From: an uncultured Methanosarcinales archaeon
GTDB taxonomy: Archaea > Nanobdellota > Nanobdellia > Woesearchaeales > DATGWN01
Reading direction: 5' to 3'
NCBI GenBank assembly: GCA_964624275.1
Contig: CAZUXP010000005.1
Coordinates: 1-49,446, forward strand
DNA: 49,446 nucleotides
Translations under genes and position numbers: made by a program
In this document: one piece after another, positions 1,424 to 44,052 of the stretch
Layout of the letters: the number at the start of each line of letters is the position of its first letter
Numbering within the stretch: position 1 is the first letter of the stretch
Notes under the pieces: model-generated
Told to the model about the DNA's origin: nothing
Seen by the model: only the letters and a program-made list of their open reading frames with translations
Database searches by the model: none

Positions 1424-2313
1424 AAAAATTAATTAAAGTATGTAAAACAAAAGAATTTGGTTTAGCAACGTTAATTGGATTACTTATATTCATATTATTT
1501 ATTGGTGTTGGTGAAACCCAAAATAGCGTATTTGGAACTATTATTTCATCAACTATTGAATCCCATCCTGATTATAATATAATTCAATCGCAAAGTGTAA
1601 CACCACAACAACTCGAAGATGACCCTGAAAGGTTTTTGAATTACTTCATACTTGTCATAAGTGTTTTAGTTGGAGCAGGAGTAATAGGATTTTTACTTTA
1701 CGTTTTGTTTCAGACAACATTTTGGAATTTTGTGCAAACAAAAAAAATAAGCCTGAAATTTTATATGAAGCAACTTGTAAATCAGCTTTTATTTATTTGT
1801 TTTACAAGCGTTGTAATATTTGTCTTATTAGGATTAACTCCGCTTATACAAGTAACATTTGGTTTTGGTGGAATTTTAGCGCAAACAACACCAACACAAA
1901 TTATTGCACAAATCATCTTAATAACACTCTACACAATTATTGTCGTACTTCCACTTGTATATGTAGTTCATACATTTGTTTTTCATTTACCGTATTATAT
2001 TGTAAAATATGAATCAATTAGACAATCAATTAAACAATATTATCAAAAAACGATTCAAAAACAGTTGTATTACTTTTTACCTTTATACATAATAGCAGGT
2101 ATTATAATAACAGCTTCTTATCAACTTACAATATTTTTAACAGAAATGCATTATGTTTCTGGCGTCTTGTTTGGAATTCTTGCAACAATACTTCCATTTG
2201 CGTGGATATTTGTGTCAATACCAATTATTGATGACTATTTACAAGGAAAAGTAGAACAAAAAAAAATATCGAGTCGCAAAACATTGCAGCGTAATAAATC
2301 TAAACGTAACTAA
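1420..2313 (+). CDS. Multi-pass membrane protein, function unknown
   Basis: About 6 hydrophobic segments and a basic C-terminal tail; ATGA overlap with the upstream gene. Confidence 0.75.
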   Translation: MKKLIKVCKTKEFGLATLIGLLIFILFIGVGETQNSVFGTIISSTIESHPDYNIIQSQSVTPQQLEDDPERFLNYFILVISVLVGAGVIGFLLYVLFQTTFWNFVQTKKISLKFYMKQLVNQLLFICFTSVVIFVLLGLTPLIQVTFGFGGILAQTTPTQIIAQIILITLYTIIVVLPLVYVVHTFVFHLPYYIVKYESIRQSIKQYYQKTIQKQLYYFLPLYIIAGIIITASYQLTIFLTEMHYVSGVLFGILATILPFAWIFVSIPIIDDYLQGKVEQKKISSRKTLQRNKSKRN

Positions 2314-2661
2314 TTACTTGCGATACTTTGCAAGTATATCCTCTATTTTTTTCAAATTTTCAGATTTGATTGTTAACGCATATCCACTTAATATTAACTT
2401 TATATCATCAACTGAATGCGGTAATATATCTACTAATTTAATTATATGCTCGTCTTTAAGTCGTGGAATTTCTAATTCAACTAATTCTTTTTTCAAAGCA
2501 GTTGCATCTTTATCGGTTAATGGTGTGAATTGGTTCACATACGCTTCACATCGATTTGCACGAAAACCAAGTTCTTCATCTCGTTTCTTTAAGACTTTCA
2601 AATTTTTTTTTACATCGTATGAACTTAATGGTTCTTCAAAAACTATTTCTGGATTTGTCAT
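2314..2661 (-). CDS. rpo4: RNA polymerase subunit F (Rpo4)
   Basis: 115 aa with the HRDC-like motif IIKLVDILPHSVDDIKLIL; directly downstream of eL21 as in the conserved archaeal operon. Confidence 0.9.
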   Translation of the reverse strand: MTNPEIVFEEPLSSYDVKKNLKVLKKRDEELGFRANRCEAYVNQFTPLTDKDATALKKELVELEIPRLKDEHIIKLVDILPHSVDDIKLILSGYALTIKSENLKKIEDILAKYRK

Positions 2662-2663
2662 TT

Positions 2664-2954
2664 TTATAAAGATTGTAAATGTGCTGGATGAACAATAATT
2701 CGTTTTTTTGTTCCTTCATCAGTAACTTCAACTTTGTAACAATCGCCTTGTTTTGCTAAAACGACTCCGCTTCTTCCGTGAAATCTTCGAAAATATAATC
2801 CTTTTTGGATAATCGGCTGTGCTTTTAAAACAACTTTTTGTCCGATTTCATATTCATGCAAGCATCTTCGAATGCTTAATTTACCTTTTTCACGGACTGA
2901 GTTTTGAAACACGTGTCGTGTTTTTCTTCGATTTCCGCCTACTCTTGTTGCCAT
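2664..2954 (-). CDS. rpl21e: 50S ribosomal protein L21e
   Basis: GGNRRKTRH, RRFHGRSGVV and IVHPAHLQ motifs. Confidence 0.95.
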   Translation of the reverse strand: MATRVGGNRRKTRHVFQNSVREKGKLSIRRCLHEYEIGQKVVLKAQPIIQKGLYFRRFHGRSGVVLAKQGDCYKVEVTDEGTKKRIIVHPAHLQSL

Positions 2955-3049
2955 AATACACTTGTGGAATTCAAATCCCTTTAAAAATGTTGTTGTTGTC
3001 TCAGCGATATGTGTATTTGTATAGAAGATAAAATTTCAATTTATAAAAC

Positions 3050-3063
3050 GAAACATTTATATA
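3050..3063 (+). promoter_or_regulatory. BRE-TATA promoter upstream of sepF
   Basis: GAAACATTTATATA; near-identical motifs recur at 7247, 18527, 41237 and 48295. Confidence 0.6.
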
Positions 3064-3109
3064 TAGTTTTAAACCATTTATTTTTAAACGTTGTAGTAGA
3101 GGTACACAG

Positions 3110-3508
3110 ATGAAGCGATTTTTTGCAAACTTAACTGGAAAATTAAAAAATAATAGTAATAATGATGATGATCTTTTAGAGATTGAAGAAGAATATGTTG
3201 AATTAGATTCACGACCAATGGTTAAAGACGATGATGCAAAAGTAGTTGTGCGACCTTTTACAATTGAAGACTTCTCAGATGTCAAAGAAATACTCGATAC
3301 AATTCGCGATGGGTATACAATTGCACTTGTAAATATTAAACCATTAAAAGAAAAAGATGTTATTGAATTAAAACGAGCAATTAGTAAACTAAAAAAGACA
3401 TGTGATGCTATTAAAGGTGATATCGCAGGTTTTGGTGATGATTATATAGTAGTCGCGCCTGAGTTTGCAACTATTTATCGTCAAAAAAAATCTGAAGACT
3501 CGCTGTAA
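3110..3508 (+). CDS. sepF: Cell division protein SepF
   Basis: N-terminal amphipathic helix (MKRFFANL), EEEYVELD, and a SepF core (DVKEILDTIRDGYTIALVNI...GDIAGFGDDYIVVAP). Confidence 0.9.
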   Translation: MKRFFANLTGKLKNNSNNDDDLLEIEEEYVELDSRPMVKDDDAKVVVRPFTIEDFSDVKEILDTIRDGYTIALVNIKPLKEKDVIELKRAISKLKKTCDAIKGDIAGFGDDYIVVAPEFATIYRQKKSEDSL

Positions 3509-42345: not shown

Positions 42346-42403
42346 CTTTAATAGAATAATTCATCCCAAATCTTTATAATGAGTGACTTCTTCTCTGTTA
42401 TTC

Positions 42404-43234
42404 ATGAGAAAATCATACATGCGTGTTGCACACGAAGTTATTCAAAAATCAGATGTAGTCATTCAAGTACTTGATGCACGACTTATTGAACAAACACTTA
42501 ATCCTGAACTCAGACGTCAAGTCGAATTATTGCAAAAACGAGTTATTACTGCTATTACAAAGTGTGATTTAGTCTCAAAAGAATATTTGGATAAAAAAGT
42601 GAAAACGATTCCAAATGCAGTGTATGTTTCTTCAAAAATGAGATTTGGGTTTAAAAAATTACGAGAGCTTATCTATAAAGTCGCAGCTAAACATAAAGAT
42701 GATCAAATTAAAGTTGGTGTTGTTGGATATCCAAACACAGGAAAATCAAGTTTAATTAATACACTTAAAGGTAAAACAAGTGCACCTGTTTCTTCACAGA
42801 GTGGGATGACAAAGGGTGAACAACGAATTCGTATTTCGGGACGAGTTATGTTATTAGATACGCCGGGTGTAATTCCAATTGATGAAAAAGATTCTGTTCA
42901 AATGGCATTAATAGCATCAAAAAATCCTGATAGACTTAAAGATGCAGATTTAGTTGCGATGAAAATTTTAGAAATGCTTTTTGAACAAGGCCATACGAAT
43001 CAAATTGAAGAAAAATATGATATTAAGATTACAAATGAAAGTGTTGATGAAATTATTGAGATGATTGCAATCAAACGAAACCGAGTTATCAAAGGTGGAT
43101 TACCTGATATTCAGACAATTTCTCGTCAAATTATTCATGAATGGCAGAAAGGTACATTGATATCACTTCATAACACCGAAACGCAAGAATATATTGCAGA
43201 TGAAGAAGATGATTTAGATGAGAGTAAAGAGTGA
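42404..43234 (+). CDS. Circularly permuted ribosome biogenesis GTPase (RbgA/YlqF family)
   Basis: VLDAR, TKCD (G4), VSSK (G5), GYPNTGKSS (G1), DTPG (G3) in permuted order. Confidence 0.92.
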   Translation: MRKSYMRVAHEVIQKSDVVIQVLDARLIEQTLNPELRRQVELLQKRVITAITKCDLVSKEYLDKKVKTIPNAVYVSSKMRFGFKKLRELIYKVAAKHKDDQIKVGVVGYPNTGKSSLINTLKGKTSAPVSSQSGMTKGEQRIRISGRVMLLDTPGVIPIDEKDSVQMALIASKNPDRLKDADLVAMKILEMLFEQGHTNQIEEKYDIKITNESVDEIIEMIAIKRNRVIKGGLPDIQTISRQIIHEWQKGTLISLHNTETQEYIADEEDDLDESKE

Positions 43235-43257
43235 TTTTGAAGCATTTTATCTCTAAC

Positions 43258-43550
43258 TAGCACATACATAAAAGTGAGTGATTTTAGACACTTTGAAATA
43301 CTGCTTGTCTATTTGACAAGTGGATGAGCAAGGCGAATGGATATTCAAAGGGGAAGAAAGTTCAAATCAACTATTTTGTATAAATTGTAATTGGTACTAA
43401 TTTGAACTTTCGACATCTTCAAAACTTCGTACAGTTTCATATAGAGTGCTACCTCCCCGGATGGGACAACCCCCGCTAACGCACTCAAAGAATTTTCAAA
43501 AGAGTTTTGACCTGATGATGTAAAAATCACTCGTAAAATTGTATGTGCCC
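43258..43550 (+). ncRNA. Putative ~290-nt structured RNA or non-autonomous mobile element of unknown class
   Basis: Paired termini enclose three hairpin domains; G-U pairs favour the + strand; CTCTAAC direct repeats flank it. Confidence 0.55.
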
Positions 43551-43638
43551 TCTAACCGATGAATTTAAAAAGGACTTTACCTAAAACATAGGTTAGATTT
43601 CGCAATTTATCGCGAAAAATCGTTTGGAGGTGACAAAA

Positions 43639-44052
43639 ATGAAATTTGAAAAAGGCGCAGCCTGGAGTTTAACTGTTGCTCGAGTATTAGTCGGGTTACT
43701 GTTTGTATATCAAGGTTGGCAAAAAGTAATAGATCCCGCAAGTGTTTCAGGATTTTTTCAATCGTTAGGATTGTTTGGATTCTTAGGGCCAGTTGTAGGA
43801 TATCTTGAAGTGATTGCGGGTATTTTGTTAATAGTAGGTCTTTGGACTACGTGGGCAAGTATTACAATCGGAGTTATTATGGTTGGTGCATTAGTTTTAG
43901 TACAATTTCCAAATAATGGATTCATTGATGGATTATTTGGGCGCGATATGCTCATTTTAGCAATCACATTTGTACTTGCGTCTAATGGATCGGGTGAGTT
44001 AGCTTTAGATAAAGAAAAAAAGTCTCGCAAGCTAAACAAATCTAAAAAATAA
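43639..44052 (+). CDS. DoxX family membrane protein
   Basis: ARVLVGLLFVYQGWQK, EVIAGILLIVGLWT, GSGELALD; SD GGAGGTGA at 43626-43633. Confidence 0.92.
   Translation: MKFEKGAAWSLTVARVLVGLLFVYQGWQKVIDPASVSGFFQSLGLFGFLGPVVGYLEVIAGILLIVGLWTTWASITIGVIMVGALVLVQFPNNGFIDGLFGRDMLILAITFVLASNGSGELALDKEKKSRKLNKSKK

Follow-up and report, generated by a model that had tools for sequence, protein, structure and literature searches.

The window, meaning the whole 49,446-nt stretch of Woesearchaeota DNA analyzed here, holds at positions 43259 to 43549 of the plus strand a whole mobile element of 291 nt, one arm of which is a conserved and covarying module. On the joint evidence of termini, copies, and base pairing, we read it, with a probability of roughly two-thirds, as a MITE copy that is moved in trans by an IS66-type enzyme and that carries an independent module acting as a folded single strand of the plus strand. 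It would be one copy of a MITE that is spreading through the Woesearchaeota of one order. An earlier, sequence-only reading of this DNA had proposed a four-way junction, either a new noncoding RNA or an RNA-structured mobile element. Mobility, lack of autonomy, target duplications, and a covarying arm 3 have stood, while the four-way junction as a unit has not.

Results

The element, present here in its "long" form, lies in the GTPase-DoxX spacer of a 1.14-Mb Woesearchaeota genome (G000) and is bounded by the inverted ends AGCACATACAT and ATGTATGTGCC. The left terminal inverted repeat (43259..43269, plus strand, as are all features below unless noted) is the 5' strand of helix P1 and pairs with the right one (43539..43549) in the fold and in other copies, some of which carry the compensating variant ACACAACCA/TGGTTGTGT; window-type terminus sequences are GGCACATACA or GGCACTGCCA. 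Helix P2 joins the left arm (43274..43285) to the right arm (43523..43534) in the fold and in a six-copy consensus. The direct repeats CTCTAACT (43251..43258) and CTCTAACC (43550..43557) flank the ends and are identical at seven of eight positions; CTCTAAC, which had been likened to a target duplication, is indeed present at 43251-57 and 43550-56 as part of these 8-mers. By eye, the right flank can be recognized in the single-copy spacer of a sister genome of the same genus (G001). The only ORF in the 291 nt, 61 amino acids on the minus strand (43345-43530), has no Pfam match, and the element has no transposase gene. Small size, no transposase gene, inverted ends, a duplication of fixed length, and dispersed copies are all features of a MITE.

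The minimum free energy (MFE) fold of 43251-43556 reaches −81 kcal/mol on the plus strand, compared to −58.5 ± 4.4 for shuffled sequences (z = −5.18), and none of 100 shuffles equals it; the minus strand reaches −76.3 (z = −3.09). The hand-folded helices of the sequence-only reading are all in place in this fold, and the folding z-score that it had set as a check favors structure. At the gathering score, no Rfam 15 family matches anywhere in the window, and at an E value of ≤10 the region 43000-43800 gives only a chance snoRNA match within the upstream gene, in agreement with the earlier failure to assign a known family.

A likeness to helix 8 of the signal recognition particle (SRP) RNA had also been suggested. 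The size of ~290 nt, the paired ends, and the capped C/G-rich apex fit the SRP RNA of archaea, intact or degenerate, and RF01857 finds no SRP RNA anywhere in G000. We consider this identity next to impossible, since the element gives no RF01857 match up to an E value of 10, it is multicopy, and a single normal SRP RNA occurs in 56 of 61 relatives. The likeness also fails in G001, where a normal SRP RNA with a GGAA/AGCA helix-8 motif (C9:8334-8603) exists beside 13 or more copies of the element.

The search for copies that had been proposed, carried out with BLAST and nhmmer, found about 11 and one left-end fragment in G000. Unlike the 291-nt window copy, the usual copy is a hairpin of ~165 nt; such short copies lie on contigs C33, C14, C12, C3, C22, C50, C6 (two), and C8. 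A second long copy (G000:C9:11383-11669) is 85% identical to the window element. The search model, R1, makes nine strong matches and one weak match in this genome, in which no near-identical multicopy ORFs were found. In the short copies and in metagenome contigs, 43286 is joined directly to 43412, so that 125 positions are skipped and four letters fit either side; the joint seen in metagenome DNA contigs derives from short copies. The skipped stretch (43287..43411) consists of arms 1 and 2 and has GACA flanking both sides. A BLAST comparison of 61 genomes confines this insert to G000, in two copies on C5 and C9, with a partial free-standing copy at G000:C1:39134-39208 that has no Rfam match at an E value of ≤10. 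The "four-way junction" thus combines two things, a hairpin element of ~165 nt and a lineage-specific insert of 125 nt.

Perfect 8-bp repeats abut the inverted ends of 19 of 75 copies, compared to 0, 2, and 0 of 75 in three controls, and each copy has a different duplicated target (TCAAAAAC, GTTGTATA, GATCAGCC, TGCTCTCC, AATTTTTC, and others). By tblastx, the 11 copies in G000 and 13 in G001 have no flanks in common. A single new noncoding RNA gene, one of the original proposals, is not supported, since G000 has about 11 copies, not one of which occupies a site that is also filled in the sister genome. Of the empty sites that had been suggested as a check, one was seen: the GTPase-DoxX spacer of the sister contig is element free and 72 nt long versus 405 nt here, a comparison made by reading both spacer sequences by eye. 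Among metagenome DNA contigs, no empty allele was seen. In G082, 11 of 13 copies have no target duplication and the outer stems vary from copy to copy, yet copies without recognizable termini or duplications retain the core; a simple picture of a recent MITE does not explain them. Relative to neighboring ORFs, 69 copies (including L069, a locus from one of the unpublished genomes) had no orientation bias (19, 18, 17, and 11, with 4 unresolved), and therefore no shared promoter logic is visible.

Arm 3 is the conserved core of the family, 114 positions that R1 matches in the window at 43412..43524 with 115.5 bits. Comparison of sequences among copies indicates that this module is built of five covarying helices, P3, P4, P5, P5b, and P6, on the plus strand. 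P3 (ACATC, 43413..43417, with GATGT, 43517-21) has both sides changed in four of its five pairs across 67 copies, with 96% of cells paired. P4 (TCAAAACTT, 43419..43427, with GAGTTTTGA, 43502-10) is nearly invariant in sequence, with 99 to 100% of cells paired, and its few changes are compensated; at one pair, for instance, 11 copies have U-A or G-C in place of C-G. In P5 (AGTGC, 43445..43449, with GCACT, 43481-85), the pair at kept columns 36-72 occurs as five pair types and is paired in 100% of copies. P5b (TACC, 43450..43453, with GCTA, 43475-78) makes three of four pairs in the window copy, which has one C-C mismatch, and takes the forms UGUC/GACG, UGCG/CGCG, UAUG/CAUA, and UGUG/CACA among copies; it is absent from R1 and was found independently of that model. 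The AC bulge after P5b (43479-80) is kept in 64 of 67 copies.

The apical hairpin P6 (43454..43466) pairs TCCC (43454-57) with GGGA (43463-66) around the loop CGGAT. The bases at kept columns 44-54 pair in every copy, as C-G in 57 and as U-A in 9 of them. An unpaired run of CCCCC stands 3' of P6 (43470..43474), and its last position covaries with that pair, the combination being C-G-C in 56 of 67 copies, U-A-U in 7, and another in 4. This pattern suggests that the C-run probably lies against P6 as base triples. Some MFE folds instead pair the G-run with the 3' C-run in a Watson-Crick hairpin. This alternative was rejected, as columns 53-64 and 55-62 do not pair and the hairpin misfits the covariation.

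Over the 67 copies, 94.7% of cells are paired compared to 82.8% in shuffles, in an alignment that was fitted to the model for P3 to P6 and so favors structure. Both sides are changed at 21 of 27 pairs, in 218 cells versus 55 in shuffles, and the covariation score is 0.398 versus 0.166 in shuffles and at most 0.098 in slid controls. None of 500 shuffles reaches any of the observed pairing, both-side-change, or covariation figures, a control that overstates significance because copies within a genome are related. The earlier remark that G-U pairs favor the plus strand also held, as U-G is common at three pairs (37, 27, and 9 copies) and fold z-scores are better on the plus strand in three of four cores. 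Extra hairpins of 50 to 175 nt occur at fixed points, namely, the P6 loop, the linker between P6 and the C-run, and the P2/P3 junction, which is where the 125-nt insert of the window copy is located.

The CTAAC that had been noticed in the arm-3 loop is present at 43476-80, where it belongs to the conserved core as the 3' strand of P5b plus the invariant AC bulge; it is not tied to the insertion site. A guide to the element's own target would make this an RNA-guided element, with transcript loops pairing with target and donor DNA as in the IS110 bridge RNA or the TnpB/IscB guide. The recurrence of CTAAC in the window flanks and the structured nature of the element suit such a scheme, but the loop is constant, its AC bulge being kept and its P5b bases paired inside the core, while the targets vary. 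The TnpB zinc ribbon (PF07282) was found in none of five genomes, and IS110 and TnpB/IscB systems are not known to make 8-bp duplications. RNA guidance is thus extremely unlikely.

R1, with up to 24 candidates per genome scored, found the core in at least 29 of 151 genomes of the order, including the unpublished genomes G129 and G140 (loci L069 and L073 scanned), at 1 to over 40 copies each. Apart from this count and the orientation count above, no result depends on those two unpublished genomes. In G065, the two halves return 51 and 41 BLAST matches, and G080 has 71 terminus motifs versus 0 to 1 in the control; those at contig starts in G080 belong to long MITE variants rather than IS ends, and G080:C54 is a divergent element copy. 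One exact pattern was scanned in viral contigs, and none of its four matches was confirmed by R1. Termini across copies and genomes are of the types GGCAC..., GTATGTGCATAGC..., GTA(A/T)GTA.TAAG..., and GGCG..TTGAA. Over the order as a whole, it is the core that is conserved, whereas its flanking arms and termini differ.

IS66 family elements have GTAA-type ends and 8- to 9-bp repeats (ISfinder). The GTATGTGCATAGC terminus of the G080 copies is identical at 13 of 13 nt to the left end of an IS66 family element in G080:C13. All 31 metagenome relatives that were examined hold an element of 1,522 to 1,554 bp bounded by inverted repeats; the termini are GTATGTGCATAGC forms with at most two changes in 30 and GTACATGCATAGC in one, and clear 8-bp duplications are present at four. 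A second IS66 element (L149), with ends GTAAGTAATAAGT and duplication ATTTTGCA, matches the G065/G098 termini at 11 of 12 nt, with one mismatch. G080-type and G065/G098-type copies thus share the outermost 12 to 13 nt and an 8-bp duplication with ~1.5-kb elements of the single-gene (ISBst12-like) IS66 group. The shared termini and duplication argue that a DDE transposase acting in trans moves these two subfamilies.

No transposase partner came to light for copies with GGCAC ends, the type to which the window element belongs. PF03050 (IS66) has no match in G000, and the single DDE_Tnp_1 element of that genome has ends unrelated to those of the element. Of the longer, transposase-encoding versions that were to be looked for, IS66 counterparts, by their termini, were found for two other subfamilies and none for this one, which would be moved by a similar enzyme supplied by some other partner. 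R1 made one match in 62 IS66 loci, outside the IS, and none in 15 further IS66 loci. IS66 elements in G015 and G049 do not share their ends with local copies. At the genome level, IS66 (23 of 151) and the core (at least 29 of 151) did not co-occur, with both in 5 genomes versus 4.4 expected, and an IS66 gene is present in just one of 12 core-rich genomes, G080; this null result is weak evidence because metagenome-assembled genomes (MAGs) often lose IS contigs. DDE_Tnp_1 was found in two of five genomes, RVT_1 only in G000, IS1595 in 0/22, and IS256 in 2/22.

The strong covariation, the expansion hairpins at fixed points, and the conservation of the core across the order could also describe paralogous small RNA genes of the host that do not move and whose closing stems merely resemble inverted repeats. 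Such genes would not be expected to have 8-bp duplications, an empty site, termini that match those of IS66 elements, and no shared sites within a genus, nor would R1 be expected to have no match among the candidates scored in 122 of 151 genomes. We therefore regard host RNA genes as very unlikely.

Discussion

In the mechanism that we favor for the MITE reading, the interior of the element is an independent 114-nt module and not a deleted transposase gene. The module would most likely act in a folded, single-stranded form, probably as an RNA that arises by read-through or local transcription, and would most likely bind a specific factor. It would be kept for the benefit of the element or of the cell.

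An ordinary selfish MITE would have no RNA product and no role beyond mobility. Its core would be only a cis-acting part of transposition, such as a structure formed by the single DNA strand that is transferred, or subterminal protein-binding sites like the TCAAAAC on both arms. The near-invariance of P4 in sequence, and not just in pairing, is what is expected of a protein-binding site, but IS66 elements with the same termini have neither the core nor TCAAAAC near their ends, and therefore their transposase needs neither. Although the absence of orientation bias and of a visible promoter, the patchy distribution, and the unconserved sites all resemble selfish DNA, the termini change between genomes and the core stays, even in the G082 copies that are without recognizable ends or duplications. 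Competence for transposition alone could preserve a fold; G-U pairs and the covariation of three positions are more in keeping with a folded single strand than with duplex DNA. We consider a purely selfish MITE unlikely but well above negligible.

It is possible, and we raise it tentatively, that the core is a new structured RNA class, an autonomous folded module carried as cargo on IS66-type termini that it has acquired repeatedly from different insertion sequences, selected for an RNA role and spread horizontally through the Woesearchaeales. Its features would be the five helices, the AC bulge, a triple-helix clamp of C+.G-C or U.A-U, and expansion hairpins at fixed sites, and its roles could include binding a host or viral protein, ribozyme activity, or acting as a decoy.

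REPIN-RAYT systems resemble the element in being hairpin repeats of ~100 nt with a patchy distribution and arms that stay complementary. REPINs are not known to make 8-bp duplications, and the Y1 transposase gene that they flank is a single one. In the present case, Y1_Tnp (PF01797) occurs in two of five genomes, G000 not among them, and no R1 match with an E value below 0.1 lies within about 2 kb of either gene. Membership in this group was rejected on the presence of 8-bp duplications and the lack of R1 matches near Y1 genes. Compared to IS66, the element has no transposase gene and an unrelated interior, and its GGCAC ends have no matching IS among those found.

MITEs SM1 to SM4 of the archaeon Sulfolobus were reportedly described by Redder et al. 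in 2001. Those elements and the MITEs in a bulk census (PMC11602168), whose available part includes a "Woesearchaea" genome with 105 MITEs per Mb, are also nonautonomous, have inverted repeats, and can be dense in a Woesearchaeota genome. The available parts of such reports (PMC2229807 and PMC11602168) catalogue archaeal MITEs by their ends and describe no conserved structured core, and one review states that no archaeal MITE had been reported to carry functional motifs (Delihas 2008, PMC2229807). No published description of the element was found in the literature, although these repeats may be among the MITEs listed in PMC11602168. Bacterial MITEs that fold as RNA hairpins (Correia/NEMIS, ERIC, YPAL/RU-2, CIR, and RUP) are, as far as the accessible accounts go, similarly shorter than 300 bp, gene-less, intergenic, and multicopy, with inverted ends, target duplications, and a partner inferred from common termini. 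According to parts of the same literature, their long hairpin folds can act in transcripts (Delihas 2008, PMC2229807; PMC3184786). The element differs from them in that its ends are not the same from genome to genome, while the 114-nt module inside it persists throughout an archaeal order. This module has five covarying helices, a bulge that does not vary, and possibly a base triple, and the partner IS lacks it.

MITE interiors are usually seen as deleted transposons that are free to decay. Here, we see the opposite, with ends swapped between lineages and an interior that is under selection for base pairing, in a DPANN order and at up to dozens of copies per 1- to 2-Mb genome. These repeats break assemblies and inflate "intergenic" space in Woesearchaeota MAGs, where R1 and the terminus motifs allow them to be annotated. 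If the core works only in cis, it would represent a transposition requirement that the partner IS itself lacks. If the core works as RNA, the element would offer an inexpensive natural means of disseminating functional RNA, and the core would be a new structured RNA class in organisms not yet cultured alone. Should the RNA in fact travel as cargo, archaeal MITEs would for the first time be known to spread a conserved functional RNA, and would do so in the DPANN, a lineage from which hardly any noncoding RNAs have been described.

The element is a repeat carrying a later insert

The window is contig C5 of G000, a Woesearchaeota genome of 1.14 Mb in 58 contigs (31% G+C, 96% complete), and its genes, among them one for a GatE that carries a GAD insert and one for a Lon_C protein, are archaeal. 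A GTPase gene (42383-43234, +) and a DoxX gene (43624-44052, +) border the 405-nt spacer that contains the element studied here (43259-43549, + strand). A sequence-only reading had folded this stretch by hand into a four-way junction of about 290 nt. All helices listed in that reading are present in the sequence and recovered in the MFE fold, which has an energy of -81 kcal/mol and a z-score of -5.18 (equaled by 0 of 100 shuffles); the - strand gives -3.09. CTCTAAC is seen at both flanks as described, and a search of the stretch against Rfam 15 returned no matching family.

The BLASTN/nhmmer search for copies that had been proposed, run on G000, revealed a repeat with many copies and not one single locus. 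A second long copy (G000:C9:11383-11669) is 85% identical to the window copy, short copies of ∼165 nt lie on contigs C33, C14, C12, C3, and C22, and partial or divergent copies lie on C50, on C8 (which also holds a left-end fragment), and twice on C6, where a 52-nt insertion extends the apical loop of one copy. The short copies lack window positions 43287 to 43411, and metagenome contigs join 43286 directly to 43412, skipping 125 nt (four letters, GACA, fit either side). The “four-way junction” is therefore made up of a hairpin element plus a later, lineage-specific insert: its helices exist, but not as one unit, with arms 1 and 2 making up the 125-nt piece. Confined to G000 among 61 genomes searched, this piece is itself a small repeat with two full copies and one partial free copy (G000:C1:39134-39208; locus L012, about 1630-1790). 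The free C1 copy has no Rfam match and folds no better than chance (z = -0.4).

A motif of the insert, GGATGA..CAAGGCG.AA, recurs in a variant interior beside the C8 left-end fragment (G000:C8:31429-31560; locus L009, about 2028-2160). Over G000:C8:31429-32356 (L009, 2028-2960), this fragment and a separate degenerate copy bracket a 209-aa open reading frame on the - strand (L009, 2218-2847), whose N-terminal ∼25 codons extend into the degenerate copy. The repeat may have supplied a gene start here, or the arrangement may be composite.

Target duplications and an empty site indicate transposition

The window element has inverted-repeat ends, AGCACATACAT ... ATGTATGTGCC, adjoined by the 8-mers CTCTAACT and CTCTAACC. 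Perfect 8-bp direct repeats border the inverted ends of copies in the same-genus genome G001 (TCAAAAAC, GTTGTATA, and GCATGAAA), on G000 C14 (AAAAATAA), and in four other genomes: G080 (GATCAGCC), G067 (TGCTCTCC), G098 (AATTTTTC and GATTTTTT), and G065 (TATAAAGC, GGTTAAAA, AACAATCC, and AAAAAATA). A blind scan of 75 copies for an 8/8 repeat directly outside ends that are at least 6/8 complementary found one in 19 copies and none at that stringency in the remaining 56. Controls gave 0/75 (flanks shifted by 12), 2/75 (right flank reversed), and 0/75 (offset by 3).

G001 (about 600 kb, 70% complete) contains at least 13 copies of ∼75% identity, and no flanking gene is common to any of 11 G000 and 13 G001 copies by tblastx. 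The sequence-only reading had proposed to look for empty sites: on the sister contig, only 72 nt separate the GTPase stop from the DoxX start, without the element, and the sister sequence AACCGATTATTTTAAAAA corresponds to the window's right flank AACCGATGAATTTAAAAA when compared by eye. Intergenic copies (n = 69) occur in all orientations, with 19 (+,+), 18 (-,-), 17 (-,+), 11 (+,-), and 4 unresolved. We conclude, with a probability of about 90%, that the window element is a copy of a non-autonomous transposon.

A conserved core covaries as a folded + strand

In a different genus and a different family of the order, weak BLAST matches have entirely different arms and retain an inner stretch, from CATCTTCAAAAC to GTTTTGACC-N6-GATG. 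This core comprises 114 positions (window 43412-43524). With R1, a covariance model built from 23 copies, it was found in 29 of the 151 genomes in a sample of the order, representing 28 of 144 genera, at 1 to at least 24 copies each; two of the 29 genomes are unpublished. In a second sample, labeled “phylum,” 17 of 151 genomes were positive, all within the same order, although the share of that sample lying outside the order was not established. Copy numbers can be high: BLAST with each half of a local copy yields 51 and 41 matches in G065, and G080 contains 71 terminus motifs.

Pairing was counted over 67 aligned copies from 24 genomes for a 27-pair structure, in an alignment pre-fitted to the model for helices P3, P4, P5, and P6 and with within-genome copies that are kin. 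Paired cells made up 94.7% (82.8% in shuffles), 21 of 27 pairs had changed on both sides (12.2 in shuffles), 218 cells had both sides changed (55 in shuffles), and the covariation score was 0.398 (0.166 in shuffles); none of 500 shuffles attained any of these values. Sliding the 3' partners by 1 to 3 columns reduced pairing to at most 51% and the score to at most 0.098.

Helix P5b lies outside the model and was first noticed in ten G082 copies, as UGUC/GACG, UGCG/CGCG, UAUG/CAUA, and UGUG/CACA. Its pairs are among the top mutual-information pairs of alignment columns: 42-64 shows five pair types and is 91% paired, and at 40-66, 54 copies have G-C and 11 have A-U. Between P5b and P5, an AC bulge on the 3' strand is kept in 64 of 67 copies. 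The window's loop CTAAC, which had been put forward speculatively as a guide to the element's own target, is formed by this bulge together with the end of P5b; the loop is constant while targets differ, and it is not a self-guide.

P6 pairs in the register U-C-C-C/G-G-G-R, and at 44-54, which is always paired, 57 copies have C-G and 9 have U-A. The last position of the C-run after P6 covaries with this pair, giving C-G-C in 56 copies, U-A-U in 7 (in G063, G065, G067, G098, G128, G131, and one degenerate G000 copy), and mixed states in 4. The pattern is that of isosteric C+.G-C and U.A-U triples, which we infer from this one column triplet. The neighboring columns disagree with an alternative hairpin that would pair the G-run with the C-run.

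U-G pairs are frequent on the + strand (39-67 in 37 copies, 43-55 in 27, and one P4 pair in 9) and would be A-C mismatches on the - strand. Fold z-scores of four cores were -2.4, -2.2, -4.1, and -2.8 on the + strand and -0.6, -2.5, -3.5, and -1.3, respectively, on the - strand. Together, the U-G pairs and z-scores indicate that the folded strand is +, as initially proposed.

In many copies, the intact core is accompanied by additional hairpins at set positions. In G044, G082, G098, G124, and G141, these measure ∼50 nt and sit either within the P6 loop or in the interval that separates P6 from the C-run; in G065 and G080, they form groups of four or five, 130 to 175 nt in all, within the P6 loop; three G001 copies hold a different ∼100-nt piece at the P2/P3 junction, the same point as the window's 125-nt insert. 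The 130- to 175-nt apical domain is conserved among at least four G065 copies (L126-L130), with a similar layout in G080 (L136-L137), and these ∼300- to 400-nt forms may represent the module in fuller form. Among ten G082 copies (L092-L101), the stem outside P3 has an entirely different sequence in each copy and is complementary within it. Two of 13 G082 copies pass a looser duplication test, and one (L093) is flanked by a 15- to 16-bp imperfect direct repeat. A simple recent-burst model does not explain the G082 copies.

An SRP RNA identity was rejected: RF01857 has no match in G000 and detects a single normal gene in each of 56 out of 61 relatives, among them G001, which also carries the element. 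That G000, at 96% completeness, has no RF01857 match even at E ≤ 10 reflects either an assembly gap or an unusually divergent gene.

IS66-family transposases are the probable partner

No Y1, TnpB, DDE_Tnp_1, or RT gene is common to five copy-rich genomes, and on these searches the element is not of the REPIN/RAYT, IS200/605-type, or RT-based kind. The two RVT_1 loci in G000 (C1:25314-25955 and C25:11943-12552; one an intact 399-aa frame, the other split by TAA) are unrelated to element distribution, because the remaining four copy-rich genomes lack such loci. G000 has one DDE_Tnp_1 insertion sequence (C6:9838-11107; 409-aa frame, 15-bp inverted ends CAGTATCTCCGAATG), which lies ∼3 kb from one element copy and has unrelated termini. 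Across 22 genomes (12 with the core and 10 without), IS1595 was absent, IS256 was uninformative, and PF03050 (IS66 family) occurred in G080 alone.

One G080 copy of the gene, on C13 and cut by the contig end, encodes an IS66-family transposase (NF033517, 214.7 bits; cutoff, 180). The 13-mer GTATGTGCATAGC, 183 nt ahead of its start codon, is the exact terminus of ∼35 G080 MITE copies. Among 62 metagenome loci holding close relatives of this transposase, the 31 with room on both sides were all 1,522- to 1,554-bp elements bounded by inverted repeats. Termini in 30 of them are forms of GTATGTGCATAGC with at most two changes (e.g., GTATGTGCATAGT), and one has GTACATGCATAGC; four show clear 8-bp duplications (ATCTCGCC, AAAAAACA, TGTTAGCC, and GTTTTTGT). 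A second IS66-family element of 1,557 bp (L149, from another genome of the order) has ends GTAAGTAATAAGT ... ACTTATTACTTAC and duplication ATTTTGCA, and its termini differ from those of G065 and G098 MITEs by one mismatch in 12. R1 found no core inside these elements, with one match in the 62 loci, 42 nt outside the insertion sequence, and none in 15 further loci. The shared termini and the missing core therefore identify two subfamilies as IS66-type termini around an unrelated module.

On one metagenome contig (L183), 42 nt separate a copy of the core (1443-1557) from the left end of an IS66-family element (1599-3130) that shares its terminus type, the only spot where MITE and partner stood side by side. 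In the order sample, IS66 genes occur in 23 of 151 genomes and the core in 29 of 151, with both in 5 genomes versus 4.4 expected. Neither G000 nor G001 has an IS66 gene, and no insertion sequence with GGCAC ends, the window type, was found. Many IS66 matches sit on 1.6- to 2.6-kb contigs, and absence is weak evidence because such contigs are often lost from metagenome-assembled genomes. We consider it probable that IS66-family transposases moved the family; for the window's own subfamily, the same assignment is evenly balanced.

The window terminus GCACATAC (43260-43267/43541-43548) is the exact reverse complement of GTATGTGC, the first 8 nt of the G080-type IS66 terminus (L133, 856-863; L156-L201 ends), i.e., one duplex in opposite orientation relative to the element tip. 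The relation may be fortuitous, or it may preserve a trace of arm evolution.

A MITE with a retained interior

In bacteria, MITEs whose RNA folds into hairpins and which influence neighboring transcripts are well known (PMC2229807), and a MITE census (PMC11602168) reports very high density in a Woesearchaeota genome. In the article full texts searched, we found no account of DPANN MITEs with a conserved structured core. The original observation of a structured element stands, and its interpretation was partly right. By mechanism, the element is an ordinary MITE. Its unusual trait is that evolution has retained the interior rather than the ends, and we lean slightly toward a core that would act as a folded single strand with a putative function of its own.
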